Source: Heteronotia binoei (lineage: Eukaryota). From it: a DNA stretch of 64,000 nucleotides. The stretch spans positions 155,868,001 to 155,932,000 of the forward strand of contig NC_083223.1 in assembly GCF_032191835.1 (NCBI RefSeq), given 5' to 3'. Both the position numbers and the translations under genes were made by a program. Below, piece after piece: positions 5,942 through 41,888 of the stretch. Position 1 is the first letter of the stretch, and each line of letters begins with the position of its first letter. The notes under the pieces were generated by a model that ran no database searches, was not told where the DNA came from, and saw only the letters and a program-made list of their open reading frames with translations.

Positions 5942-8603
5942 ATGGCTCAGCAACAGCTTGCAGTGGCCGTAGAGAAGCTCAATTCAGCCAACTACGCGGT
6001 GTGGAGCCTACGAATGGAACACTATCTGAAGCGTGAGGGTAAATGGCTGTATGTGAGTAATCCCCCTGCCATGTTATCTCCTGACCAGACTGTGTTGGCC
6101 GAGAAGGCACTGGCAAATATTGTGCTAGCCGTGGGAGATGACCAATTAATATATGTGCGTGGGAAGGACACTGCCAAGGCTGCCTGGGACGCGCTCAGTG
6201 GGGTATACGTGAGTGCCACTGCAGGCTCCCTAATGGCCTTGACCAGGAAAATGTTCCGCACTCTAATGCCGGCTGGAGGATATGTGAGGCAGCACATCAA
6301 GAAGCTTACAGACTGCTTCGTAGAGCTTGAAACCCGGGGCAAAACTGTTGCTCCTGATGACAGAGTATATATCTTGTTGTCATCTTTGCCGCCGGAGTTT
6401 ACACCGCTAATTACCTCCCTGGAAACGGTTGATGTGGCTACTCTATGGAGTACGTGTGTGCCCACCTGCATGATTTCCAGGAGCGGATTGCAGCTGTGAT
6501 CCATCCAGGAGTATCGGCTGGAGAACGTGTGGCTATCGGAGCGTCTGGGAAGACGTCCAAGCAGGAGCCGGCTTGTGCTACTGGCAGACAACCAAAGGCT
6601 GAAGAGGAGCCGACAGCACTGTTGTTCAGGCGTTCCTTTGGTTGCGGCTCATCCTCGCACCTTTTACGTGTTTGCCCTGAGAAAGGGAAGCGGCGTGGAC
6701 GGAGGCAGAGAGGGCAGAGGACCACCAGCAGATGGGAGGAAGAAGCCCAGCTGGTCACTTCTTCAGGAGAAAGTGCCGGGTCTTTGTGGATATTAGACTC
6801 TGGTGCAACAAACCATCTCTGCTGCGATGAGAAGCTGCTGAGAGATGTTGACATTCCTGAACTCTCCCATGTGAGATTAGCCGACGGTTCTTCTGCGGCT
6901 GTAAAATGTGCTGGGAGTGTAACTTTTCCCGTATTGAATTGCACATTCCAGCATGTATTATGTGTCCCCTCACTAAGATCTAATTTGCTAAGCATCAGCA
7001 ATTTAATTGATGACAGCTATGAGGTGGTGTTTAAGAAATCCTGATGTAAGATCTTAGGAGGTGGGGGGAAGCTGCTTGCTACTGGCAAAAGGGATGGAAA
7101 TGTATATGTGGTCAAGAGTGATTGTGCCCAGGCTGCACAAGTGTCCAATGTGCCAGTGCATGACCAATGTATCCATCTGTTACACAAAAGACTTGGGCAT
7201 TGTGGGTTTTACGCACTGGAAAAAACCCTACGGATGGTGCCAGGTTTGAAGGTAAAGCCCTGCAAGTGTTACCTAGACTGCCAGGTCTGAAAAAGACCAA
7301 GAGCAGGGCTTGTGCTGTGGCTAGAAAGAGCACCAGGGAGAGCAAACGTGCTTTAGAGCTAATACATCTTGATGTAATTGGCCCATTTCCCAAAAGTCTG
7401 TCGGGGAGACGGTACTGCCTAGTGGCTACCAACGACTATACAAGGTATTCCTGGGTGTTTGCCATGGAGCACAAGTCCAAGGTGTACAAATTGTTTACCA
7501 AATAATAATAATAATAATAATAATTTTATTTTTATATCCCGCCCTCCCCCGCCAAAGGCGGGCTCAGCGGTTGGGCAAAAGCAGTTGAAAGGGAGTTGGA
7601 CTTGCATATCAAGTCAATTCAGAGCGACCGTGGAGGGGAATTTACTTCTAATGAGTTTAAACGTTGGCTGGAGAGCAAAGGCATTGCTCACAGGTTAGCA
7701 AACCCAGCCACACCCCAAGAAAATGGGCTAGCAGAACGGCATGGATCAATCCTACAGAATTTGATGTATTCTATGTTAGAGGATGCCAACTTACAAATTG
7801 CATATTGGGCTGAGGCCATTGGCTCTGCGGTGTACCTGTATAACAGAATTTGGAGCAAAGCTGTGTATGACATACCTTACAGAAGGTTATATGGTAGAGT
7901 GCCTGAGTTAAGATTTTTAAAAGTCTTCGGGACGCAGGCATGGGTTAATATTCCCTCGGAGAACAGGAGGGAGTGAGCTGGCCGGGCAGTACGCCTAACT
8001 TTTCTGGGCTACAAGCCAGAAACTAGGTCTTATCGCTTTTGCGATAAGAAGGCCAAGCTGACTTTCAGTCGATCAGCTAATTTTAACGAGAATCACAGCT
8101 GGCCTAAGTTGCATGGTGAAGTCGTTTTGCTGCCAAGAACTGATAACAGTGCTGGAGCCGTGCCAAGGGAGATTAAGCAGGAGCCTAAATCTCCCGGCCA
8201 AGAGTTAGCACCAAAGGAGGCTGAGGAAGGTGAGCCCAGTGCTAGTACAGAGCCTCATGTGTCAAGTCAGGAGGTGGAACCTCCAAGCCAGGAGGTGGTG
8301 TTGCCAGCCCAGGAGGTGGCAAGCAGTCAGCCTGGAGAAGACAAGCCCAGTGCAAGTGCAGGGCCTCGAGTATCTTCCAGAGCTACAAAGGGTATCCCTC
8401 CTGCTAGGTACAAAGTACCTTATGTAACACTGGTTACTGAACCAGAACCACCAGGGTTTCAAGAAATGCTAAAGAAAAAGGCTGAAGCATGGAAGGTCTG
8501 GGTTGCAGAGTGTGAGGCACGTAACAAGGAGGCTGAGGCCAAACGCCAGAGGGAATTGGCTGACCAGGACAGTGATGATGAGTGCCTGGATTGGAAATGG
8601 TAA
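5942..8603 (+). pseudogene. Copia gag-protease-integrase polyprotein, disrupted
   Basis: Gag (EKLNSANYAVWSLRMEHYL), degenerate Zn knuckle (SFGCGSSSHLLRVC), protease (WILDSGATNHLC), LLHKRLGH, integrase (LELIHLDVIGP; SDRGGEF; PQENGLAER). Frameshifts near 6440 and 7290, a stop at 7044 and an insertion at 7501-7570. Confidence 0.92.
7501..7570 (-). mobile_element. Short L2/SINE-type 3' tail inserted in the Copia integrase
   Basis: (AAT)8 followed by TTTATATCCCGCCCTCCCC...GGGCTCAG; the same tail occurs at ~41030-41097. Removing it restores KLFT-(N/K)-WAKAVERELDLHIKSIQSDRGGEF. Confidence 0.75.
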
Positions 8604-10686
8604 ACTGTAAATAACAAAGTGCAAAAGCATGATGCTGTGATACTGCTGTCCAGAAAACAATGTACAGGCATGTGAGTGAACATTGCATAACATTGTGTAT
8701 GGTGTGAAGTTGCCAAGTGTCTATGTAAACTGTGTACGTTAGACTAGGAGGTGTGTTAGTATTAAGTCTGCCTTTACACAGTTTGACAGCTACAACATGA
8801 CAGCAAGTGATCTAGCTGGCAGGCTAGGTCACAGTGACCTTATCTACAAGCCGGTTCTAGCCGGTAAAGGACAGGTGGAAAGTACCTGCTGAGTCAGCAT
8901 GACTATGGACTGCCAGGATTGGCTGATGGAACTATATATGGACTGCACTACCAGTGCACAGGTCTCTCTTCGAGGAGTCACATGCTGGCGGAGCACTTTG
9001 ATCCTAAGGTTAATGTATATTACTGCACTAGTGAACACGTTGTATATAATCTGTAAATACACTGTTTTAGCACTAGCTGCAGGTGTCTGGCTCACTTCCT
9101 TACTGGAGCTCACTATTGTATATATCACACCACTCACTCTGCATACACCCGCACCGACAGAACTTAGCTTATTCTGTCCGGATTGTCCTTGACATTACCA
9201 TGAATGTCCTCTGAAACTAATCCATAGGTTTGCATTGCTGTCAGTTTAACATCAATGAAAGGAAAATGGAGGAATTAGTTACTAAAAGATGAGAAAGCAT
9301 AAAGGGGTTTTGTTTTGTTTTTTAGCAAAACCTGTGTTTTGTTTGTCAGTCAAGGACTTTGTTCACTCTGCTCTCCACTGTCTCTCAAAAAACTCTGGAA
9401 AGGAATAAACTTTCTCAGAAGAGAACTGTCTTGGAAGAGCTCTGTCTCCCCCCCCCCCCACACACACACACCTTTTTTTAACTCTTGAGGTGGTCCTCAC
9501 AATCTCCCTCTATATCTGAATCTTCCTGGAAATCAAGAGCTGACCATGTTTTAGCCAACAGATACCAACAGATCTCAATCTTAAAGAACCTCAGGGGTAG
9601 TTCTGATACTTCAATATCAATCCCCTCCTCCTCTGACATGAAGTCTCCCTCTTCCTTGTCATTGTGCTTATCAGAAAGAGATGGCTCTCTCTCCCCCCCC
9701 CCTCTTTTTTGTGGCACCGTTTGCTTCCTGGGAACTTTAATTGGCCAGTTAGCACCTCTAAATACTGGAGATCTGCGGGGGCAGAGGGGAGGAGAGGAGG
9801 AGGAATGGGCCAAACATGTCATTTTTTACTCTCCCTGTTAATCTTTAACATCCATTACCCTTGTGGTATCCCCCAGAAAGGAAAAACATTGGAGGGAAGA
9901 GACAGTGACCTGCATCCATGTTGGTTACCTTCTTGAGCCATCTGTGGTGCAGTTCCCAGGTAACCCGAAGCCATGGACGTTCCCCCCAGCAGGGGATATT
10001 CCTCACCACTGCCCTCCCATTTGCCTGTAATAAGCTTAGTCAGAGCTGTACATGCACCGCTAGCTTAGCCTTGCTTGTCACCACTTCCAGAGCATGCTGC
10101 CTCCTCTAACTGAGAGTACAACTCCCACGGCACTGCACTGGCTTTTGGTGCCTTTTAGATTTCTGCCACCTAAGGGCTGGCTCATCAGGGAGTCCACAAC
10201 AAGCCTCTACAGGGGCTTGTTGGCTCCACACTGCTAGTCGATGTATGGAGCCTCCCACTGCCCGGCCAATAGAAAACTGTCACCGCCCTCTGTGCCATTA
10301 AGTCAGCCAGAGGACTTTGGGGCACCAAACCCCATCAATCTCTAGTGCTGCTGAGGCAAAAAGAAAATGGCTGCTGCAGGGCAGAGGAGAGTAGCCCTCA
10401 CCAGCAGGCTGTAGGAAAGATTAGAACAAGGAGGGAAAATGCAGCATAGAAATACGAAGAAAATGGCTGAAAATGAAACAAATAGACAAGAGATTAACAG
10501 AAGGAAGGTATAAAGAAACTCTCTCACTCAGATAAAAGAAAGGCAGAATAGGTATAGGCAAAGCCTAGCCACTCTCCCTACTGAGGCAGGAAAAGAACTG
10601 AAGTTGAGGATGACTCCCACCAGGAACAGGAAGTGAAGAAATTTGTTCCTGCCTTCTAAACATAGGATGGGAATCACCCAGAACAG

Positions 10687-28606: not shown

Positions 28607-29816
28607 TTTGCACCAGCTGCAGCTTCTGCCTTCTGAATCATCTTCAAGAACAGTCCCACCTAGAATGTGTTGCAACAATCTGCCCTTGAAGTTACTAAAG
28701 CATGGATTAGCAAAGCCAGATGGCAATATGCAAACAGAGAGCCAGGTTCCTAACTAGAGTGTTTTTCACATGGGAACAGGATTGTATTGTTTCCTGTTGC
28801 TGATGTGGCTGCAGGTATTGTATAGCACAACAGCAACATGGCCTCCATATAGCTGGTTTCCCCACAGCTTTCCTGCCCCAATCCCCTTGAAGTAGACACC
28901 CCCTTGCCTGAGCTACAAGTGCTTCTGCAATTTTTTTAAAAATCATCACAAGAATATCATTACATTGACATACAGCTGTAACAACAGGTGTCATAAGTTC
29001 TGTGAATACCCAGCTTTCCTTTACTTAAAAGGTTCCTAGCTCCTTTCCTTATGAAAATATGCCTTTTTCCTTATATAACTGAAGGAAAAGGGATAGACAC
29101 CTTTAAAAAAATTAAAGCTGAGAATTTAGAGAAACTGCTACTTGTATTGTTACGAGGATATATCAATATGAGAGGAGCAAATGGCTGTCATGGGGCCAAA
29201 GTCATGGAAGATGGTTAGTATGTGGACCAGAAAATCCAAATCTATCCTCCCACATAACAGCCAACCATGGATACCTGTTTCTCCAACAGGAAACTAAGAT
29301 CCAACAATACTCCAAAATCTTAACAGAGACTTTCAGTGAAAACTGCATACTATTAATAGCAAGAAGATAAGTTCTGTAGAAAGCAGTCGCCTTTTAGACC
29401 AGCATCATCTCTGTCTTATTGGAATTCAACTTTAGTGTGTTCTCCCTCAACTTCCACAAACCTTGTGCAATACAGTATGCCAGCTGTTAAGAGCACCACT
29501 ACAATTCTAAAAAGAGTTAGATCTTTCTAAATCCACTGAAATCAGTAGGTTAGCAGAGGCAATGTTGTTAAAGATTGTACTGGCATTCACTTCATTAGGA
29601 AAAGAGAAGAACTGAAAAGCTCTTCTAAAGTTAGAATCACAGAGAGCATGAAGAAAAACAACACTCAGATCTAAAAAAAAAAAAAAAGATCTATCCACTC
29701 TCTCACTTATGGCAGAAATGCTAAGCAGTGCAGGCATTCAATTTCCAATACAAAATGTATCATCTGCCTCAGTAGTAAATAGACACCCCAAGCATAATTA
29801 ATGGGCATGGAGATAT

Positions 29817-30909
29817 GTGAGCAGCTCTGAGGATGAAGAATTTGTTCCCACAAAGCTACATTTCCTGGGGCCTGTTTTTGACGAAGAGACACACGTTAGT
29901 ATGGACAGCGGGGAGACAACATCTGACATGCTAGCTAAAAATGGCATTTCCCAAATTTTGCAAAGCCTCCTGGAAGATTTCCCAGACACTCAGGAACTTA
30001 TTCCTTACAGCACCCAGGTTTTCCAAGAGATTCCTGATTCCCAAGAGCTGATTCCAAGCGAGAACTCTATGGCACAGGTAATTTGGGAAAAGGGGATGGG
30101 GGGGAATAGAAAAAGTTATTGGAAACAGACTTTGCATAGTGCTTTTAATTGAAAAAATCTGCGTTTAATTTTCTAGTATTCTGCCTGCATTGAGCCACAA
30201 ATTCCAGATTTAAAATTGGTTGAAGCCACAGAGGAGAATATTCCTTCAGAGGTGAAGATCTCCACACAGGTATGGACCCCAGTTGTTGAGTGTTGTGTGG
30301 TGGGTGTGGGGGCTTGTCAAGGGTTGTAAAACTAAAATAAATGCTGTCTTTTTAATAGGAACAGCAAAAAATTCCATTTGGCATGGCGCCCGAGTAATGA
30401 GTCATTGCCATGAGAAAGCATTTAAACATAGAACTTTTTGAAGATTCTGACTCTATACCACCACGAAAATGGAAATCAGCAATGTCAGCATTAGTTCATG
30501 CTGTGGTCTATTCAATAACAATGCATTGATCAATGCATTTTTATATGATTCTTGTGAAGGATGCCAGCTTCAATCTCCCAGACAGAAATCTCACGTATGT
30601 GTTTCTTGGTCTGAACAAATAGTAGACTGCAAGGTGAAATTTGTAATTGATGAAATGTCAATACATTTGATAATGCAAATTGTGACCTCAGTTGGCTATT
30701 CATTGAAATGTCTGCTCTTCACGCAAGAGAATATGGACCAAATATTTGATTTATTAAATAAAGTTGGAGACGCCTCAAATTCATGCAAAACTCTTGAAAC
30801 AATTTTGAAAAACTCTGACAGTGCAATGGTTAAATATGTTCAAGGCTATATCAAAGATTTGCATTTTCGTTCATTTTTTCTGCGCCAGAAAAAAATGGCG
30901 TTTCTGTGA
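29817..30909 (+). pseudogene. Maverick accessory gene A: 3 exons, acidic S/T-Q N-terminus plus CxxC...HxC C-terminal domain
   Basis: Exons ~29817-30077, 30177-30269 and 30359-30909 with CAG|GT donors and 99- and 89-nt introns, phase 0; CEGCQLQSPRQKSHVC motif; AATAAA at 30914; exon 3 has stops and a frameshift; no in-frame ATG. Confidence 0.7.
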
Positions 30910-31098
30910 TGTAAATAAAAGAGAGATTGCAGCTGCTTTTTACTGTCTGTTTTTGAAATAAACCTTGTAAATAGACTGCAACTCCTTTTTACACTGTCTG
31001 TAAATGAAAAAAAGCCTGCAAATAAAAAGGAACCATTTTAAAGAAATCAGTGTTGTTATTACATGCCCAGGCATGCTCCCATGAAATGAAGGGCTGCT

Positions 31099-31470
31099 GC
31101 TTGCAAGGGAGGGGGGGCTGCACTCTGATTAAATCTGGAAGCATTTTAAAATTCCTAGGATGGTTAGCCCCCATATTTACTGATTGCTGTTTAAAAAAAA
31201 AAGTTTGGGAAGGGGTGTTGCAAGGGAGAGAGGCAGGGGGTTGTATTCTGATTAAATCTGGCAGCATTTTAAAAATTCCTAGCATGGTTAACCCCCATAT
31301 TTACTGGCTGCTGTTTTTTGTTTTTTTTTTAAGTTTGGGAAGGAGGGTTTGCAAGGGAGAGAGGAAGGGGGGCTGCACTCTGATTAAATCTGGCAGCATT
31401 TTAAAAATTGCTGGGATGGTTAGCCTCCATATTTACTGGCTGCTGTTTTAAAAAAAAGTTTGAGAAGGGA
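31099..31470 (+). repeat. Three tandem ~125-bp repeats inside the Maverick
   Basis: Core CTGATTAAATCTGG(C/A)AGCATTTTAAAA...ATGGTTA.CC.CCATATTTACTG recurs at ~31120, ~31245 and ~31375. Confidence 0.9.
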
Positions 31471-31737
31471 GAGCCTAATTTTATATTTTTAAAATTGCAG
31501 CGTATTTTGAAAAACTACTTACCCTCTTTCCCATGTGCTTCTTAAAACCATGGCTGCTTCTTCTCTGAGACTGTGTGGGTGGGGAAAGGAAAGGGGAGGA
31601 TTTTGCAGTCACATGGATAGAACCTGGTTACCTTTACAATTCATAGACAATTTCTATTGGATCAGCAACTAACATGGCCGGGGGAACCAATCACAGCGCT
31701 CCTTCACATACAGTAGTGGTCAGTTGGTCTTGATTAG

Positions 31738-32781
31738 AATAGGGGGTGAATCACATCCTTTTTGGCCAGAGGAGGAGAAGGTCAGAAGACATCTTTACCT
31801 TGAGGCTGCAGGTAAGCCATATGCTACGCTTTTTTTTAAGTGATTAGAAATTAATATTGCTTGTAAATTTTATTTGTAAATCTTTTTACTGCCTGTAAAG
31901 CAGCTAGTTTATGGCCTGTTTGCCCCAAACATGCTTAATGAGAAGAAAGAGGGGATCTACTCCTGTTTTTTTTTTTTAATTTAACAGACGTTTGCAAGCT
32001 GCAAGGATATTTAGCTACCCTTTATGATGGCTCTTTTGAATGGAAGAGGTTTGCTTTCTATATTTTACAACATGCTTTTAAAAAAGAGGCAGATTTCTTT
32101 CCTTTGGCTGAAAATGAATAATTGAGAAGGGGGAGGGGGGGAGTATGGGCTGTTTCAGTTTTTCTTGATTAGATTAAGGGGCCAGTCACATCCTTTTCCA
32201 GCTCACAGAGAGGCACTAAAGGAAGACTTTTTTACCCTGAGGTGTTTGTCTTAAGCTTCAGAAAAGGGGATAATAATTTAATGTTTATTTGTGATCAGTC
32301 CTTTCAATATTTTTGTAAATCTTAGGGGTGAAAAAGAACAAATATGGCAGAAAAGTCTTCAAAAACAAAGGTATATTTTGTATTCCTCTCTGTTTTAAAA
32401 TCAGTTTGCTGTTGTTTTTATAAGAGGGGTGTGTGGTGGAGGATAATTTAAAAATGGGGCGGCTGCATTATATTTCATATTTTTGGCATTTTAATATGCA
32501 GGCCAGAAGAGGCCACACGGCTGTGAAGAATGCTGGGAAATGATAACGTTCAAAAATACCATGTGGTAAATATTTGATTTGCCTTTGTGTGTGCGGGTGG
32601 ACACTGTTTTTCTCAATGATTTAAGGGCTCTTTCCTTTTTAAAAAACCAGTTTGAAAAAGCTAATGTTTTTTTCATTAGGCCAGAATGCCCCTGACAAAG
32701 ATGATGATGGGCCTTCTAATGAAAATTTCCCTCCTCCCTTATCCCTGTTGGAAAGCAAGAGACGCCTGAAACCACTGTCTG
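31738..32781 (+). pseudogene. Maverick accessory gene B: six short predicted exons
   Basis: Exons 31738-31811, 31988-32048, 32173-32241, 32326-32370, 32502-32565 and 32680-32781, all AG/GT-bounded, with 84-176-nt introns; exons 1-4 splice into one open frame; start codon not found. Confidence 0.6.
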
Positions 32782-33096
32782 GTAAATTTTAAGTTTTGCT
32801 TCACTGTTCTGGATTTTCATTTTAAAAAGCAAGCTTAATGTGTAATTTTTATATGGTGGGGAAAAATGTTTTTCAACCCCATCCATAGAGTGGCTAATGT
32901 ATATTGAGCACAAGGAGGGTCTCCAGATATAGCACGCCCTAAAAGGTGGCGAGCTAAAAGTGGGAAATTATTTTCTTGATGGTTATACGGTGGTTGGGGG
33001 GTGGCCAACAGCCTTTGAATTTAATGGGTGCTTTTTCCATGGTTGCCCAACATGCTACACACCCAGTGATAGAAACCCGCTGACAGATCATCCTTT

Positions 33097-34639
33097 AAGA
33101 ACATAAGAACATAAGAGAAGCCATGTTAGATCAGGCCAATGGCCCATCCAGTCCAACATTCTGTGTCACACAGCGGCCAAATACACACACACACACACAC
33201 TGGCTAATAGCCACTGATGGACCTCTGCTCCATATTTTTATCTAACCCCCTCTTGAAGGTGGCCATGCTTGTGGCCGCCACCACCTCCTGTGGCAGTGAA
33301 TTCCACATGTTAATCGCCCTTTGGGTGAAGAAGTACTTCCTTTTATCCGTTTTAACCTGTCTCCTCAGCAATTTCATCGAATGCGAGTTCTCGTATTGTG
33401 AGAAAGGGAGAAAAGTACTTCTTTCTCTACTTTCTCCATCCCATGCATTATCTTGTAAACCTCTATCATGTCACCCCTCAGTCGACGTTTCTCCAAGCTA
33501 AAGAGCCCTAAGCGTTTCAACCTTTCTTCATAGGGAAGGTGTTCCAGCCCTTTAATCATTCTAGTTGCCCTTTTCTGAACTTTCTCCAATGCTATAATAT
33601 CCTTTTTGAGGTGCGGCGACCAGAACTGCACACAGTACTCCAAATGAGACCGCACCATCGATTTATACAGGGGCATTATGATACTGGCTGATTTGTTTTC
33701 AATTCCCTTCCTAATAATTCCCAGCATGGCGTTGGCCTTTTTTATTGCAAACGCACACTGCCTTGACATTTTCAGTGAATTATCTACCACGACCCCAAGA
33801 TCTCTCTCTTGGTCAGTCTCTGCCAGTTCACACCCTATCAACTTGTATTTGTAGCTGGGATTCTTGGCCCCAATGTGCATTACTTTGCACTTGGCCACAT
33901 TGAACCGCATCTGCCACGTTGACGCCCACTCACCCAGCCTCAACAGATCCCTTTGGAGTTCCTCACAATCCTCTCTGGTTCTCACCACCCTGAACAATTT
34001 AGTGTCATCCACAAATTTGGCCACTTCACTGCTCACTCCCAACTCTAAATCATTTATGAACAAGTTAAAGAGCATGGGACCCAGTACCGAGCCCTGCGGC
34101 ACCCCACTGCTTACCGTCCTCCACTGCGAAGACTGCCCATTTATACTCACTCTCTGCTTCCTATTACTCAGCCAGTTTTTGATCCACAAGAGGACCTGTC
34201 CTTTTACTCCATGACTCTCAAGGAGCCTTTGATGAGGAACTTTATCAAAAGCTTTCTGGAAGTCAAGGTAAACAACATCTATCGGGTCTCCTTTGTCCAC
34301 AAGTTTGTTTACCCCCTCAAAGAAATGTAACAGGTTAGTGAGGCAAGATCTTCCCTTACAGAACCCATGCTGAGTCTTCCTCAATAACCTGTGTTCATCA
34401 ATGTGCCTACTCATTCTGTCCTTGATAATGGTTTCTACCAACTTTCCCGGTATTGAAGTCAGACTGACTGGCCTGTAATTTCCTGGATCTCCTCTGGAAC
34501 CCTTTTTAAAGATGGGGGTGACATTTGCTACCTTCCAGTCCTCAGGAACAGAGGCAGATTTCAATGAAAGATTACAGATTTTTGTTAGAAGATCCACAAG
34601 TTCAACTTTGAGTTCTTTCAGAACTCTCGGATGTATGCC
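33097..34639 (-). mobile_element. CR1 LINE, 5'-truncated, near-intact RT ORF (33374-34597)
   Basis: 407-aa RT ORF and (ATGTTCTT)n tail; inserted in polB between TDHPF and EFADLHY. Confidence 0.96.
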
Positions 34640-35127
34640 GAGAGTTTGCTGACTTACACTACAGAAGCCTGAGGAAAGAACGTTACTTGAAAAGCCAGGG
34701 GTATGCTGTTTGGTCCATATGGGAACACGAGTGGAGGGAGATGGCGACAGCTGACAGGGAGCTTAGAGGCTTTATGAGTGAGAAGAAATTTCCATCACTG
34801 CAGCTCCCCAAAGATGCTCTCTTTGGGGGCAGAACAAATGCCATTTGCCTCTATTACAAAGCTGAAGCTGGTGAAAAAATACATTACTATGATTTCACCA
34901 GCCTGTACCCTTTTGTCAACAAGACAAAGAAATACCCAATTGGACACCCCCAAATTATTTATAAGGACTTTGCCCCAGTATCTGAATACTTTGGCCTGGT
35001 CAAACTGAAGATGGTGCCACCTCGAGGTCTCTTTTCCCCTGTATTACCCTACAAGGTGGGGGCAAACTTCTGTTCCCCCTCTGTCGCACATGTGCAGAGA
35101 CGAAGCAACAAGAGCGTTGTATGCATT

Positions 35128-36293
35128 TATAACAGCGCGCCTCACGGTCTCACTGGATCGCTTCTATATGCGGTTTATGGCTACCCCAGCCCCTCTTCCG
35201 CCTCAGTTCTTCCTTTTGAATTTTACCTCACGACTATGAAACTCAAGGGATGGGTGTAATATGGATTTCTCACTACTAGTCTCTTAGGGGTTTTTGTTTT
35301 GCTTTCAGATGGATATAAACTCAGTTTGTGGGGGACCACAACAGCTTTGATAGTTTTCCCAATATACTGGCACCAGAGAACTTTAAAAGTAAACCACAGA
35401 AATTTATTAACATACACACATCGTCTTCAACTGGGGAATGGGAAATATATACATGGGCTCTATTGTATCTCAAGCAGTTAACAGTTTCTTCGTAGTTCAG
35501 GCTTTATAATATCTAGTTCCCTTAGGTCTCTCAGGTTTCACAGATCATACAGCTTTCACTCTCCAACACTATTCTGGGTTGGCCTCTTGGGTATAATGTG
35601 CCAAGTCCCTTAAGTCAACTGGTGTCTCTTCTCCCAGCCCTTCAGACTTCTAGACCCACATCTTTTCCTCAACCACCTCTTTAGCTCTTAAGAGAAGTGT
35701 CTCTGTGTCTGTGACCTCTCAGGTCTTTTACTGTGACTCTCCTTTAGTCACACACAGCCCCTTGGCTGTCTAAATAGAGTGAACAGTGAGCTTTGCTTCT
35801 CTCAAAGACTCTCCTCAGCTGCTGTCTCAGCTCCTTCTCAGACCAACTGCTCTCTTCAGCAGTCTCCCTCAGACTCTGTCAGACACTTACTGCCCTCAGC
35901 CGTTAGCTGTCAATCACCTCTGAGAGTTCCGAGCACTCTGGCCCCCACCCTCAGATCACCTGACGCAGGCTCTATGCGTCCTTAGTCTTCTTGTTAACCC
36001 GTTCATTACCGTCACAGTGACCTTACCATCTGATTCATCTGAGATATCTGATGTGTTGTCCAGGCCAATTTCCCTGCGGGATCACACCTACCCATGCTTC
36101 CAGTCTTCCTCAAAGGGCTTCATGATGCCTGGGACCAACCCACCTCTATCCCTCTGACCTCAGAGCGTTTGAACTCCTTATATCGGATTCATGCTCTGGA
36201 CTTGAAGTTCCTCTCTTCACACCCTGCTCTGAATTCCATTATTGTACACTCTGCTACCAAGGCTAAACTTCATTACCGTTCATTACCGTCACA
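35128..36293 (-). mobile_element. Solo LTR (Gypsy-like TGTGACGG...GTTATA) with an extra DIRS ORF1-like segment
   Basis: 5-bp TSD GCATT (35123-35127 and 36294-36298) in polB; the LTR terminus CGTTCATTACCGTCACA occurs at both ~36000-36016 and ~36277-36293. Confidence 0.75.
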
Positions 36294-37288
36294 GCATTCT
36301 TCACTGAAAAGAGTGCTAGAAGGTGTGTAGTGCACAGTGGAACTGATGAAGGCCCTCGAGAAGGGGTATCAGATCATATCTATTAGGGAGGTGTGGCATT
36401 TTGAGGAAAGCTCTGAAGACCTGTTTTCTGAATACATTAAAGTGCATCTCCAACAAAAACAGGAGTCTTCTGGCTATCCTAGCTGGTGTACAGATGAGGG
36501 GGAAAGGGCCAAATGCATACAGGGCCAAATGCATTCTGAACACATAGCTGTCAATCCTGCAAAGAGGCAGATTGCAAAATTATTTTTAAATTCCTTGTGG
36601 GGTAAGTTTGGCCAGCATTCAAACTTGGTAAACACTACTATAGTGAAGGATGCTACCAAGCTTCTAGAATTTGCCTTTTCTACAGCATATGATGTGTCAG
36701 GATTTGACATAATTGACGATGAAACAGCAAGCGTGTCCTGGAAACACGCAAAAGATACAGTTACCTTAGCTGGCAACACGAATGTTCTGATGGCATGTTT
36801 TACAAAATCTTATGCACGGTTAGAATTGTATGAAATTTTAGACAGGCTGCAGGACCGTGTCATTAACCATGACAGGAATTCAGTCATTTTTGTCAGTCAG
36901 GAGGGGGATTTTATTCCGGCTCTCGAAGATTATTTAGGAGATCTCACATCTGAACTCCCACCAAATGAGCATATCACAAAGTTCACGTCAGCAGGTCCTA
37001 AAACCTATGGTTACAAATTGTCGGGTGGAAAGGCGTGTATGAAAGCCAAAGGCATCCCCCTCAATGTTTCTAATTGTGAAAAAATTAACTTTAACACCTT
37101 GAAGGACCTGGTCTTAGATTACACTGCCGAGCAGGCATCTAAAGAGATCAGAGTCCAGCAACCCTCCATCCTAAGGAAAAAGAATCAGTGGCTTATTGAG
37201 ACAGGGCCACTTAAGAAAACCCTCAAAGTCGTTTATGATAAGAGGGTCCTTGTGGACAAATACAGAACATTGCCATACGGTTTTTTAA

Positions 37289-37733
37289 ATGGATGTACGA
37301 TGGAAACATCCATTTTCTGCAGTACTGGCAGGGCCTAGCAATTGTAGCAAGAGTGTCTTTGTAAAAAGTATTTTGGACAATGCTCAACATGTGCTTTTTG
37401 TATCACCTGATAATGTCGTGTGGTTTTACAGCTGTTGGCAGAATCTGTATGACGAAATCCTCTAAATTCACATCTGTAAAGTTTGTTGAAGGGCTGCCTG
37501 AAACCCTAAATGATGATCAACTGTTCCCCGCTAATAAAGTAAGTCTGATTATAGTGGATGATTTGATGGACTCTGCTTGTCAAAACCCTGAAATTGAAAG
37601 AGCCTTTACCAAATACGTGCATCATTGGAATCTGAGCATTATATTTATTACTCAGAATATTTTCTTTCATGGAAAAAGCGCCAGAGCCATAAGTTTAAAT
37701 AAAAAATACCTGGTTCTGTTTAAAAAAAACCCG
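37289..37733 (+). pseudogene. Maverick packaging ATPase (FtsK/HerA-like), N-terminal part
   Basis: MDVRWKHPFSAVLAGPSNCSKS (Walker A), SLIIVDDLM (Walker B), SIIFITQN, YLVLFKKNP; one frameshift; truncated at ~37733. Confidence 0.93.
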
Positions 37734-38191
37734 TGAGGTCTGCTGTAAAGTTGATATTTTGGATTGCCTCATCTGGGGGTGTCCCTAAAAGGTGAGCCAA
37801 TTCTTTAGAAGCTGAAAAAGTATAAGTAGGCGGTGCTCTTAGACCGATCTTCCTATACCATGGGTCATAGTCCATGCTCAGTTCGGGGGAGGGGGGAATG
37901 TGACTGTACGGTGTTGTTCAATTTCACCACCAGGTCAGGAATGCTTTTATAATAGCCGCTACTGAATCTGTATTTCCACTGTTTCTCCTTGATAACGATT
38001 ACAATGGTGGAATCTTCGGTGAGGGTCTTCCAGCTGTGAGGATACTGTATTTCCACAAGCCCATCCTCCCAGGCCCTTGGAAGGTCCAACGACCTTGCTA
38101 GATGGGTGGTAAAGGCTGTTGTAGTGTTCTGTGGAAAAACACTTGGGCATGCGTTGCTAGGGAGGGTGATAAAAAAGCCGCTGTCAGTCAT
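37731..38191 (-). pseudogene. Maverick minor capsid (penton/PX) protein, N-terminal part
   Basis: FFITLPSNA...FPQNTTTAFT, GLVEIQYPHSW, GYYKS; continues after a frameshift to ...LAHLLG...ADLT. Confidence 0.85.
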
Positions 38192-38198
38192 TTTTTTT

Positions 38199-39407
38199 CT
38201 ATATAGGATCACAGAGTTGAGAAGCAGGAACCCAGCTGTTAAATTTATCAGGCCACCCTAACCACTTCATTAGATGTTGTTTTCTCTTTCCCCTGCCTTT
38301 GGAGGCTAAGATTTTCTCGATTCGATACACTCCGTCTGCTTTACTCTTAACTTTTTGTAGCTCTTCAGGATAGAATGAGCCTATGATGGGGTCTCCGGCA
38401 TAATCTTTGAGCAAGTACACAGGCCTCTTGCCTCTACAGCTGACCTGTTCTACTATAAATAGTTCATTTGTGAAGCTCCATTCATATCCTTTTACAAAAA
38501 CTCCTTTGCTTTTAGACACACGCACATGGTCTCCTTTTCTAATGAAAGGCTTCTCCTTTACATTTACCCCAACACAGTCTCTGTAAAGCGTTTTCCACAT
38601 CTTATGAGGGTTGGTGTGGTTTACATCCACAGGACGGGCTCTGATTGTCCTGTGAAAGCTGTGGTTGTAACTTTTAATAAGCAGCGGCAGGACGTCAATA
38701 CATCTGAAGGTGTTGTTGGCAGTAAAATACCTCCACGTTTTTGTTTTTAATGTTCAATTGAAGGGCTCCGCAATAGCTGCTTTGACTTCATTATGGGTAT
38801 AAACGTGGTGGACTCCGTGTTGCTTTAACACGCTGCTTACAGACTGGTTTAGAAACTCTTTACTTGAATCAATCTGAAGCTTGGCAGGTATTCTACCTTG
38901 TTTGAAAATTTCCTTAAGCACTTTCCCCCCTCTTGTCTTTTAAGGCCAAAGCCCAGGCATATTTAGACAATATGTCAACCACTGTTGTAGCCATCATTAT
39001 TTTTGGAAAATTTCTGCATATCAACTAAATCTGCTTGCTACTGGGCATCGGAACCAGAAACCATGGTCTTGTTTCTCTTAAAGCGGACACGGGCTTGCTT
39101 ATGCAATGTGTAAGCATCTTGCTCTGAAAGCCAGTTAGTTACATGATTTTGAATGAGAGTCCAGGCAAATAGGCATGAAAAACCTCAGCTTGAGACCCTG
39201 GAGAGCCGCTGCCAGTCTGAGTAGACAATACTGACTTTGATGGACCAAGGGTCTGATTCAGTATAAGGCAGCTTCATATGTTCATATATGTTTACACTGC
39301 TTTTTGGCTGCCTGGAAGAGAGACCTCACCCCGCCAAAGTTCCCTGCTTCTCCGGGTGTATAATACATGTGCCTTAAGGCCTCCTCTTCATCAACTGCCC
39401 CACTCAT
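38199..39407 (-). pseudogene. int: Maverick retroviral-like integrase with C-terminal chromodomain
   Basis: MYYTPGEAGNFGGV, WLSEQDAYTLHK, QADLVDM, DILSKYAW; chromodomain YRIEKILA...KWLGWPDKFNSWV; stops, frameshifts and a SINE insertion. Confidence 0.93.
39160..39285 (+). mobile_element. 5'-truncated tRNA-derived SINE (Squam2-type) in the integrase gene
   Basis: TGAGACCCTGGAGAGCCGCTGCCAGTCTGAGTAGACAATACTGAC...TATAAGGCAGCTTCATATGTTCA matches the 3' half of the copy at 42571. Confidence 0.8.
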
Positions 39408-39542
39408 CGCCCGCTTAACTCAGAAATGATCACACCAGGTTATAAAACAAATGTCTTTATTGTAACAGAACTACTTCTTCCTCTTATTATTCATTTTATT
39501 ATTCTTTTTCTTGTCGCACTGGGTAACTTTGGTACAGAAATA

Positions 39543-40215
39543 CTACACACACAAAACATTCACGTCAACAGGGTTACCGATATGAAGATTACTAAAAGCC
39601 TGGATAAAATTCTCATCAAGCTGTCAAAATAAAATAAAAAGAACAGCTCAGTGAAAAAGTCCATCACCTGCCTTCATTATACACCCATTCACAAACACTG
39701 CTTTACCTGATTACCTATGAGTTTGACACCGCATTATCTTGTTCCGTGGATTCGTCTAAAACCTCTTCATTTTCACCCCCCTCTGGAGTTTCATCATCAT
39801 CTTCAAATGGCTCAGCAGGGTCCCGGTAAATACACCACAGTGGGTTGGGCATTCCCAAGTCCATCTCATCTTCAGGGCGGCTGGAAAGCTCCGTCCACAC
39901 ATCATGCTGGCTTCCCCATGCAGGCATCATCGTGTTTTCTGTTCTGCCATTTATCTCAGGAGTTGCGGGGTGCTTGGGCATCTCCGCAGCCTCATTGGAG
40001 ACCAGGTAAGTACAGCGCATGGGGACAACTTCACTAAAGTACATAGTAGATGCAGAAGGGATGTCAAATTCCAGCTGCCTGGCAGGAGCGCCAGTGTTTT
40101 TGAGGCTAGGCCTCCCCGATGGTGGTGGTGTGGTGAATACCTGGGACCTGGCAGGAGTTTCCATGTTCTCAGCAAGAGCCTGTGCATGTGTGTTCAAGCA
40201 CAAATAGCTTCTTTC
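39543..40215 (-). pseudogene. Maverick accessory gene C: Pro-rich and acidic, at least two exons
   Basis: 501-nt exon 40215-39715 (TTATTTTAG acceptor, ends TAG|GTAATC), 94-nt intron, 78-nt last exon 39620-39543 (LDENFIQAFSNLHIGNPVDVNVLCV*), and AATAAA downstream on the minus strand. Confidence 0.65.
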
Positions 40216-40379
40216 CTAAAATAACCGGGGGGGCCTCAGCCCATTTGCTATTGGCCAGGGGTGACTGGGCGTGTTGTTAGAAGGATCACATGAACCTACT
40301 CAGGCCTTCTCAGTGGCAGCCCCCATTTTCCAGGGTGGGATGCCATAGGCGGAAGTTCAATGACACTGCACTAGGTGGC

Positions 40380-40921
40380 GCTGGAGAAGGGGGGAGGGGT
40401 GGGAGCTACACATGTGATTTCCGGCCTACTCAATTAATATGCAGGGATGTAGATGCTGATTGGCCTGGCTACGCCACGTGGTGTGAGTCAGTAAGGTCAT
40501 TTCCTGGAGGAGGTGCTTAATTAAATATGCAGGTAGCTACGTCATGGTGGGGCATAGATGGTGATTGGCGGGGCTAGGTCACGTGGGGGTGGGGCTAGAC
40601 AGGACACCTCCTGGTGAGAAGCACTTGATTAAATATGCAGGGTGTCTACATCATGCTGGCGCCCCCAAAATAGGTCACTTCCGTCCTCCATTTGACGCAG
40701 TTTCCTGTCATGTGACTCTGGGATCATGACCTGGGTGACGTCATTGGGGCCATGACCCAGATGACGCAGTTTCTGGTGACATCACCGGATGTGATGTCAC
40801 TGGCCACGCCCCTTCATTAAATATGCATGGGGTTGACACAGTTTCCGGTGATGTCACTGGAAGTGACATCACTGGCCACACCCCCTTCATTAATAATCCG
40901 TGGGGAGGCCTATTTACTACT
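40380..40921. promoter_or_regulatory. Maverick right terminal region with dense transcription-factor-site repeats
   Basis: TTA(A)ATATGCA x4, GATTGG (CCAAT) boxes, CACGTG x2, TGAGTCA, TGACGTCA, GGAAGTGAC/GTCACTTCC, and GC boxes. Confidence 0.7.
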
Positions 40922-41888
40922 TGCCTCGCAGCAGACAGGTAGCTATCTGAAAGTTAGACAAGGCCTGCATTATTTTGCTTTATGTGTTACCCTTATATGA
41001 TCAAGTATAATTTATTGTATGGGCCGATGTTGTTAGCCACCCTGAGCCTGCTTCGGCGGGGAGGGCGGGATATAAATAAAATATTATTATTATTATTTAA
41101 TCGCATAATATTGGCACAGATAAAATCATGCTTGACAAAGTAGCCAAAGCTTTACATATTTTGCCTTCTATACATAGCCAAATATTCTGTCTATCCAGCA
41201 CACCTTTACTATTTCATTATATTATTTGAGTTTGAAGTACATATTTATGTGAAATAATTGCACTACATTAGTTCTTTTAACATAATATGATGATTTAAAA
41301 TAATTAAACCAATTAATGAAACTGAATTATGTCCTTTAAAGAACTAATTAACTTAACTTTAGATCACAATACCATGTATACCAAAACTACTGCCACAGAG
41401 AAAAGAGACTTGAAAAAAGAGATTGGTGCATCCTCCTTAGTCTATAGCCCTGAAGGCAGAGAGGATTTTCTCTAAAACTAATAGGATTAATAATAATCAA
41501 TAATATAACAGTCAAGACACCAAAATACTTATTGTATGGGAAAGTGAAAAAATACCCCTCCATTAGAATCACAGTTGTTCGAAGCAGTAACTAAATCCAT
41601 ATTCTTCTAATTTTGTTTTACCATATTGATGAAATACACTGAGCTTTGAGTACAATTACCACATTTCTTCAAACAATCAAAAAATGTTATAGTATCCATT
41701 CTAAAGTGGAAAGTAGCTAGCAATAGCATTATTAGACAATTAGTGCATATGTTTACCAGAGCGTGCATATTGCAACTCTCATCTTAAAGTTTTAGTTCAA
41801 TGCAAGTTCTTCTCTCTTCGTTACATTATTTTACATCCTACCCCACTTTCACACACTTCCTTGCACCTTTCCCATATGGTAACCTAAC

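Follow-up and report, generated by a model that had tools for sequence, protein, structure and literature searches.

Spliced terminal genes and a probable spliced leader of the polymerase gene in a Maverick family of Heteronotia binoei

Described relatives and the element in the window

Mavericks (Polintons) of vertebrates have been searched for and defined by intronless open reading frames (ORFs). Barreat and Katzourakis (2021; PMC8097293) observed no introns in the genes of intact vertebrate elements. The present analysis concerns an element of this type at positions 29765..40927 of a 64,000-nucleotide stretch of Heteronotia binoei DNA (NC_083223.1, 155,868,001 to 155,932,000, forward strand; hereafter the window). 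Its two terminal genes, termed A and C, and probably the 5′ end of its DNA polymerase gene (polB) are spliced, which contradicts the published statement, and both terminal genes have a common start encoded in the terminal inverted repeats (TIRs). We are highly confident of the gene architecture and have good confidence in the reading as a whole, namely that a reptile Maverick family possesses spliced terminal genes together with leader exons spliced to polB. That this leader is coding is probable, by a slightly smaller measure, and the particular functions proposed below for A, C and the leader are tentative.

Vertebrate Mavericks have the same (AGT)2//(ACT)2 ends, 6-bp target-site duplications (TSDs), convergent core modules and accessory regions at both ends as the element studied here, whose TIR falls within their range of 46-1,447 bp and whose near-complete copies are of comparable size (16-19 kb), but they are characterized by intronless genes, whereas A, C and the polB leader are spliced (PMC8097293). 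Oncoid genes (Starrett et al. 2021; PMC8502044) resemble gene A in their position upstream of polB, their Cys/His cluster of putative metal-binding type and their Ser/acidic, CK2-like run, but they are described as ORFs, with no occurrence of "splic" in the main text, while gene A is spliced and without LxCxE. The same authors list Bcl2 homologues. Intron-containing genes between TIR and core, as found here, are known from the nematode wasp/krma cargo (Widen et al., bioRxiv 10.1101/2022.07.12.499685), which is interpreted as host-derived enzymes beside a core described as intronless; A and C, in contrast, matched no host family in the searches made, start within the TIR and accompany a probably spliced polymerase gene. 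Spliceosomal-type introns within polinton-like proviruses are common to the present element and the dinoflagellate eupolintoviruses, which carry introners, i.e. recent transposon-made introns (PMC12166617), whereas positions and phases here are shared by divergent families. The excerpts of PMC10748475, PMC12220804 and bioRxiv 10.64898/2026.10.13.758929 mention self-splicing introns alone. A literature search retrieved no account of spliced vertebrate Maverick genes, although subscription journals, Repbase or supplements could contain one.

Adenovirids are thought to derive from polintons, whose polB is a terminal-protein/vOTU/polymerase polyprotein (bioRxiv 10.1101/2024.03.18.585575), and in adenoviruses the mRNAs for pTP and polymerase have their first, short 5′ exons in common (PMC11304566). 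Adenovirus early units are spliced genes running inward from both terminal repeats, which resembles the layout found here, with the difference that terminal protein and polymerase form one polyprotein in the present element, which moreover integrates. In adenoviruses, E1 and E4 occupy the two genome ends. The likeness to adenovirus early regions put forward in the initial annotation holds for the layout, with predicted promoters in the two TIRs and a replication gene that is probably spliced; searches of gene A in Pfam, PDB, BFVD and a wide structure collection yielded no sequence or fold link to E1A or E4.

The termini, TSD and gene order of the initial annotation were reproduced. TGCCTC is found as a perfect 6-bp TSD at both flanks (29765..29770 and 40922..40927), a duplication of this length being expected by chance at 1 in 4096 junctions; the left terminus AGTAGTAAATAG stands at 29771-29782, and its inverse at 40910-40921. 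The order within is A(+), three ~130-bp repeats, B(+), polB(+), ATPase(+), penton-like(-), integrase-chromo(-) and C(-), so that two convergent core modules lie between accessory regions. The polymerase is of the protein-primed family B (PF03175, DNA_pol_B_2, with E-values of 1.5e-12 and 3.6e-12, above the cut-off), and the retrovirus-like integrase was matched by rve with E 6.9e-14 in a sister copy and weakly in the window copy (rve 0.0027; Chromo 1.1e-07). By its polB, its integrase with chromodomain, its (AGT)2//(ACT)2 TIR ends, its TSD and its layout, the element is therefore of Maverick/adintovirus type, as originally proposed.

Terminal genes A and C

Sister copies were gathered by DNA searches of the same genome. 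With the gene A region as query, the best 40 of 164 candidates were scored, those outside the window being 87-93% alike, and with the gene C region 40 of 142 candidates were obtained. The resulting set comprised 20 kb around each of the 20 best other A matches and 29 other C loci, and the family counts at least 40 copies in the genome that are ~90% alike. In 15/20 copies, the exact left terminus is located 498-1,086 bp ahead of the base that is reached after 38 bp in the window, and this additional left-end DNA is the inverse of the right end of the window copy, which gives family TIRs of ~0.7-0.9 kb. From these longer left ends it follows that the window copy has lost most of its left TIR and the start of gene A. 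What is left of this TIR are 38 bp with the (AGT)2 end (29771..29808, plus strand), the remaining repeat, the promoter and the gene A start codon having been deleted. The right TIR (40148..40921, minus strand) spans ~0.8 kb and includes internal ~70-110-bp repeats, a predicted promoter and the first six codons common to A and C.

Gene A is encoded on the plus strand. Its exon 1 (29809..30077), the 5′ part of which is missing from the window copy, codes for a basic stretch followed by a Ser/acidic run and ends at a phase-0 donor at 30078 (GT in 19/20 copies). In sister copies, this exon reaches upstream to an ATG within the TIR, and since the TIR ends ~six codons past this ATG, genes A and C share their first codons. 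GT-AG intron 1 (30078..30176; AG in 18/20 copies) is followed by exon 2 (30177..30269; phase 0-0), which measures 93 nt in 19/21 rows and 90 nt in the other 2, and by GT-AG intron 2 (30270..30358), which contains in-frame stops and is 89 nt long in 20/21 rows. Exon 3 (30359..30909) encodes a conserved helical domain with a CxxC...QxxHxC pattern, is disrupted by stops and a frameshift in the window copy, and precedes an AATAAA at 30914. Across exons 1-3, the sole frame without majority stops is the one demanded by the phase-0 junctions, and read-through of either intron runs into stops. In at least 3/20 copies, exon 3 has an unbroken frame between its acceptor and the stop, and none of the 20 genomic copies is devoid of intron 2. 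The RefSeq protein XP_060111165, which is 85% identical to gene A, has the same two exon junctions, its gene model removing intron 1.

Gene C lies on the minus strand and begins with an acidic exon of 450 nt (39715..40164) that starts at the TIR ATG (ATG in 23/29 copies). An intron of 94 nt with GT-AG borders and stops in three frames (39621..39714) separates it from exon 2 (39471..39620), which encodes a Cys cluster and a basic C-terminus, has a premature stop in the window copy and is followed by AATAAA at 39461-39456. The intron measures 94 nt in 30/30 rows, with GT in 27/29 and AG in 28/29 copies. The sole majority-stop-free frame over exons 1-2 is the spliced one, exon 2 being open up to its terminal stop in phase 0 only. 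A second intron suggested by the window sequence was discarded because its acceptor AG is present in just 1/29 other copies. Near the start of the protein stands an RxLxF word, which we take to be cyclin-docking-like, and gene C may act on the cell cycle. Neither Pfam nor PHROGs returned a match for gene C.

The short GT-AG introns assigned to A, B and C by the initial annotation are accordingly present and ancestral in the family, and A and C are indeed missed by ORF-based annotation. Of the test proposed therein, i.e. to collect further copies and examine the exons, the A and C exons and exons B2 and B3 of the following section emerged as open in the spliced frame only, while the second C intron turned out to be private to the window copy.

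The probable polymerase leader and the RNA evidence

The initial annotation counted three spliced accessory genes. While A and C are spliced element genes, the third, B, was reassigned to the 5′ part of polB. It comprises, on the plus strand, leader exon B1 (32326..32370, with ATG at 32344; a coding part of 31 nt in 9/18 copies, but of 27 nt and out of phase in the window), phase 1-1 exon B2 (32502..32565; 63 nt in 11/18 copies, but 64 nt and out of frame in the window), phase 1-1 exon B3 (32680..32781; 102 nt in 9/18 copies) and a 105-nt exon B4 within DNA that is absent from the window. The exons of 31/63/102/105 nt are thus all of phase 1, and in B2 and B3 only the phase-1 frame is free from majority stops. 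The acceptor after B4, with AG in 10/12 rows, opens a frame into polB, and over the 3,260 columns behind it the three frames contain 61, 90 and 1 majority stops. B has neither a terminal stop nor a poly(A) exon of its own. Since its four exons, all of phase 1, continue in frame to the polB sequence, B is read as the spliced 5′ end of this core gene.

Upstream, a predicted internal promoter together with a first exon that does not code (31640..31811, plus strand) ends at a donor at 31812, which has GT in 16/18 copies, is deleted in the other 2 and was not seen in the RNA described below. A duplicate promoter/non-coding exon unit (32155..32241, plus strand) has a weaker donor at 32242, and both units presumably bear CCAAT- and AP-1-like words. 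The duplicated promoter-like part spans 31720-31811 and 32155-32241, each with a donor behind it, and the two may represent alternative first exons of polB.

A leader of the same build was found in a third Maverick family of this genome, which was retrieved by a polB search (L124-L128; the second family is described in the next section). It is young, with elements of ~17.5 kb, long open polB frames and TIRs of ~100-140 bp, and its polB is 53% identical to that of the window family over the piece searched. Its leader exons of 28, 93 and 72 nt are all of phase 1, and in 4/4 copies the polB frame begins right at the acceptor. The first of these exons was matched in 3/4 copies, the second measures 99 nt in the most diverged copy, and the last leader intron consists of ~2.9 kb of tandem repeats in two copies. 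The right-end gene of this family is likewise multi-exonic, with four donor-acceptor pairs and repeated Cys modules. In a further, single copy with 69% identity in polB, the first exon measures 31 nt as read by eye; this copy also has a phase-1 exon of 135 nt, and its acceptor is the same.

RNA was examined as contigs, not reads, from one metatranscriptomic run that contained 7% of the sequence words of 29771-32877. The contigs (128, most of them 90-95% alike) were aligned to sister copy L027, which retains all B exons. Three of the 12 joints listed coincide with predicted introns, with one contig each. At A intron 2, the contig skips 89 nt at a position shifted by 4 nt, an offset accounted for by the near-identical sequence with which exon and intron end. 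At B2-B3, 108 nt with GT-AG borders are skipped from a donor 3 nt upstream of the predicted one to the predicted AG, whereby the frame is kept. At B3-B4, the letters between the two sides of the joint correspond to the end of B3 plus the start of B4. The two stretches of L027 uncovered by RNA, 5985-6223 and 8375-8852, are no evidence of silence. The junction-spanning RNA envisaged in the initial annotation was thus obtained for A intron 2, B2-B3 and B3-B4; these contigs indicate that the sites can be spliced, and whole messages are not thereby established. One more contig has a loose end at the first base of A exon 2, where it is joined to foreign upstream sequence (L027:8123), and host transcripts may therefore splice into dead copies.

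Several observations weigh against the reading advanced here. In the RNA, 9/12 joints fit no predicted intron, one contig retains sequence of the B4-B5 intron, and no spliced form of A intron 1, B1-B2 or the decisive B4-to-polB junction turned up in the one run, which was aligned to the A-to-polB stretch only, with gene C outside it. Variants among the copies bear no sign of selection (pN/pS of 0.91 for private and 0.69 for shared variants, p 0.47), and the retention of GT/AG at gene A donors and acceptors (18-20/20 copies) does not exceed the per-base background agreement of 95-97%. Such retention therefore speaks for ancestral sites only and was dismissed as evidence of selection. XP_060111165 is a prediction, likely from the same genome or species, and so adds no second lineage. 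Gene C exon 1 has no protein relatives among the near-length proteins searched, and the same applies to codons 1-110 of the long polB exon among the longer proteins searched, with Pfam and PHROGs also blank for the polB N-terminus. The single in-frame majority stop of polB, in its Cys-rich part, is present in 8/11 copies (e.g. L011:7034 and L047:6349), which suggests that polymerase-dead elements were multiplied in trans. Finally, an in-frame Met follows the polB acceptor within 10-19 codons in all three lineages, so that polB could be made without the leader.

This last point, together with the B4-to-polB junction unseen in RNA and the leader peptides, which tblastx found to be unlike between lineages, would agree with B being a small spliced gene in its own right or a 5′ leader that is mostly non-coding, with polB translated from its own Met as an intronless core protein. 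We consider this improbable, because the internal leader exons of all three lineages are multiples of three, of phase 1, open and matched to the phase of the polB acceptor, phase and layout being kept where the peptides are not. Moreover, the leader exon of the diverged copy differs by an in-frame 6 nt, and B lacks an end of its own. A coding leader spliced to polB accounts for these features and is preferred.

Gene A relatives, further families and the fate of the window copy

A search among 1.84 billion proteins with gene A exon 3 returned 47 relatives. The clusters of 20 of these were looked up, and 18/20 were reptile-named or nameless. Those bearing a name are uncharacterized models of geckos, anoles, Pogona, Hemicordylus, Elgaria, Tiliqua, Phrynosoma and turtles, frequently in several near-identical, dispersed copies per species, and one turtle model extends into polB-like sequence. 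One gar cluster bears an ERCC-6-like name and matched weakly (E 1.5e-05). Residues C66, C69, Q76, H79 and C81 of the domain are conserved in at least 90% of 44 rows, and 37/47 relatives have one CxxC plus HxC rather than two CxxC. The predicted structure of the exon 3 domain is a compact helical fold (pLDDT 90), for which Foldseek found no match at E 0.001 or better in PDB and BFVD. A wide structure search gave Cas12f as its best hit (Z 6.0, rmsd 3.8, 89 aligned), which is in the noise range for helical domains, a sequence profile search of PDB gave a single match (E 0.033), and ESM Atlas gave no usable match for P0003 or gene C exon 1. As gene A has no Pfam family or PHROGs match either, the profile and structure searches proposed in the initial annotation assigned no named family to A or C. 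An Oncoid label for gene A was considered and dropped, as LxCxE is found in 3/47 relatives and CR1 in 0/47, with LxCxE also absent from XP_060111165 and, among sister copies, from the upstream portion of exon 1. By its sequence, gene A belongs to a reptile-wide, Pfam-less, predicted zinc-binding family that is annotated as host "uncharacterized LOC" genes, and its basic stretch, acidic Ser run and Cys3His site make a nuclear regulator the most likely role. Models P0045 and P0015 combine an A relative with a host SRCR/CUB/ZP protein or with polB-like sequence; these fusions probably represent chimeras of annotation or element sequence that has been exonised.

A second, young family was detected in the same genome by a search with a distant A relative, through ~60 near-identical frames of 182 codons. 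It consists of 15.4-kb core-less elements with 5.5-kb TIRs that are 99.4-99.98% alike and far exceed the 1,447-bp maximum of PMC8097293; its AGAAGA termini, (AGA)2//(TCT)2, are not among the three motifs listed in the excerpt of that source. Perfect 6-bp TSDs flank 5/5 elements (L117+L097+L098, at G000:C11:6408030-6423426, L101, L103, L107 and L113), and exact terminal matches numbered 31, versus 0 in the control. The elements carry no more than a spliced homologue of A and an acidic gene that is likewise spliced, with a frame for Bcl-2 (Pfam E 8.8e-22) between the two. The A homologue is 27% identical to gene A (E 6e-19), which is the only likeness to the window family, the DNA being unalignable, and its phase-0 GT-AG intron, with a GT donor in 10/10 copies, is situated within ~three codons of the place of A intron 2. 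At the other TIR, a three-exon acidic gene with Cys residues faces A, both genes starting at the inner edge of the TIR; no alignment was obtained between this right-end gene and gene C exon 1. The termini of the second family are the same as those of the young third family, which is likely its helper. The core-less element also occurs in tandem or inverted arrangements with A copies close to each other (L105, at G000:C11:9963161-9983160, and G000:C21:24561489-24564318).

The Bcl-2 gene of the second family, the annotation of A relatives as host LOC genes and the precedent of intron-bearing cargo next to the TIR in nematodes (bioRxiv 10.1101/2022.07.12.499685) would all be expected if A and C were host genes captured with their introns, as passengers akin to wasp/krma. 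This is nevertheless very unlikely, since no Pfam family or named host protein explains gene A, its start codon lies within the TIR and is common to C, its relatives are dispersed, multi-copy and near-identical within species, and the number of introns varies between families while the TIR-adjacent position is kept. That the splice sites represent chance signals within Maverick DNA that does not code, and serve only cryptically in host read-through of dead copies, is scarcely credible: the contig fusing foreign sequence to A exon 2 and the neutral decay of the copies would be compatible with it, but stop-free frames switch exactly at the splice sites with agreeing phases, an intron position is shared with a family whose protein is 27% identical and whose DNA cannot be aligned, and exon 3 is a conserved protein domain that starts at its acceptor.

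Under the preferred reading, in which A, C and the polB leader are spliced parts of the element itself, each TIR would provide a likely promoter and the same start codon for a spliced gene, A on the left and C on the right. Host polymerase II would read inward from both TIRs to produce A and C early, the internal promoter units would give rise to a spliced polB message, and the host spliceosome would remove the introns of element transcripts in the nucleus. A could then be a nuclear zinc-binding and C an acidic cyclin-docking early regulator, which jointly would ready the cell for replication. The Lys/Arg-rich leader may serve as a nuclear-import signal for the terminal-protein/vOTU/polymerase polyprotein and, given this polyprotein organization, would remain on the terminal protein after cleavage; as the leader exons are symmetric, exon skipping could shorten it. 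A broader scenario, according to which reptile Mavericks run an adenovirus-like early programme, with spliced TIR-driven regulators at either end and a spliced terminal-protein/polymerase gene in a layout that adenoviruses inherited from polinton ancestors, and according to which these regulators benefit the element so much that core-less satellites, keeping just them and Bcl-2 between 5.5-kb TIRs, spread by means of the enzymes of the young autonomous family, is speculative.

As vertebrate Mavericks have been described as intron-free, spliced element genes would be missed or filed as unknown host genes. Should splicing hold for the polymerase and terminal genes, the polB N-termini published so far lack a part, the number of accessory genes has been underestimated, and dozens of reptile genes labelled "uncharacterized LOC" belong to Mavericks. 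It would also mean that the elements depend on nuclear host RNA processing, and junction-spanning markers would tell true element transcription from DNA carry-over, rendering viral expression of vertebrate Mavericks testable, best in young families. The "undescribed system" of the initial annotation is too strong a term, since what is undescribed is a feature within a known family.

The copy in the window is a dead, internally deleted Maverick fossil, and all copies fetched are decayed. Although its ends are exact, the element announced as precisely bounded is not whole, as the greater part of the left TIR is missing, along with ~3 kb of polB and the block for capsid and protease, and three later insertions have been received. 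The ~3-kb deletion, with its junction at 32861..32877, took away exon B4 together with the acceptor at which the long polB exon begins and ~950 N-terminal polB codons, all present in sister copies. The remaining polB (32861..37288, plus strand) consists of three pieces, 32861-33096, 34645-35127 and 36294-37288, which are contiguous in sister copies. They are separated by a fragment of a CR1-type long interspersed nuclear element (33097..34644, minus strand; RVT_1 E 3.8e-32), whose site is empty in sister copies, and by a later insertion of 1.17 kb with ends resembling long terminal repeats (35128..36293).

A second deletion, of 4-5 kb at 37726-37730, removed the pm/pz, protease, major capsid and pw-position frames found in sister copies. 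It truncated the putative packaging ATPase, of which the frameshifted 5′ part is left (37289..37726, plus strand), with a Walker-A-type stretch where expected (Pox_A32 E 0.029, below the cut-off). The candidate adenain-like protease gave Peptidase_C5 with E 0.0047, also below the cut-off, in a sister copy. Candidate capsid genes appear in sister copies as long frames at the expected places, without matches in Pfam, PHROGs or PDB sequences. The gene at 37730..38191 (minus strand), which likewise has no library match, is presumably the minor capsid (penton) gene, a label that we take from its position and an N-terminal motif. The broken rve integrase with its C-terminal chromodomain (38199..39407, minus strand) is interrupted by a later insertion of 131 bp (39160..39290).

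Six sister copies retain both ends and measure 9.5-18.9 kb, near-complete copies being 16-19 kb long; the TSDs of these six are perfect in 1, have one mismatch in 2 and two mismatches in 2, and are unmatched in 1. The three ~130-bp direct repeats between gene A and the polB leader (31101..31470, plus strand) differ in number between copies.

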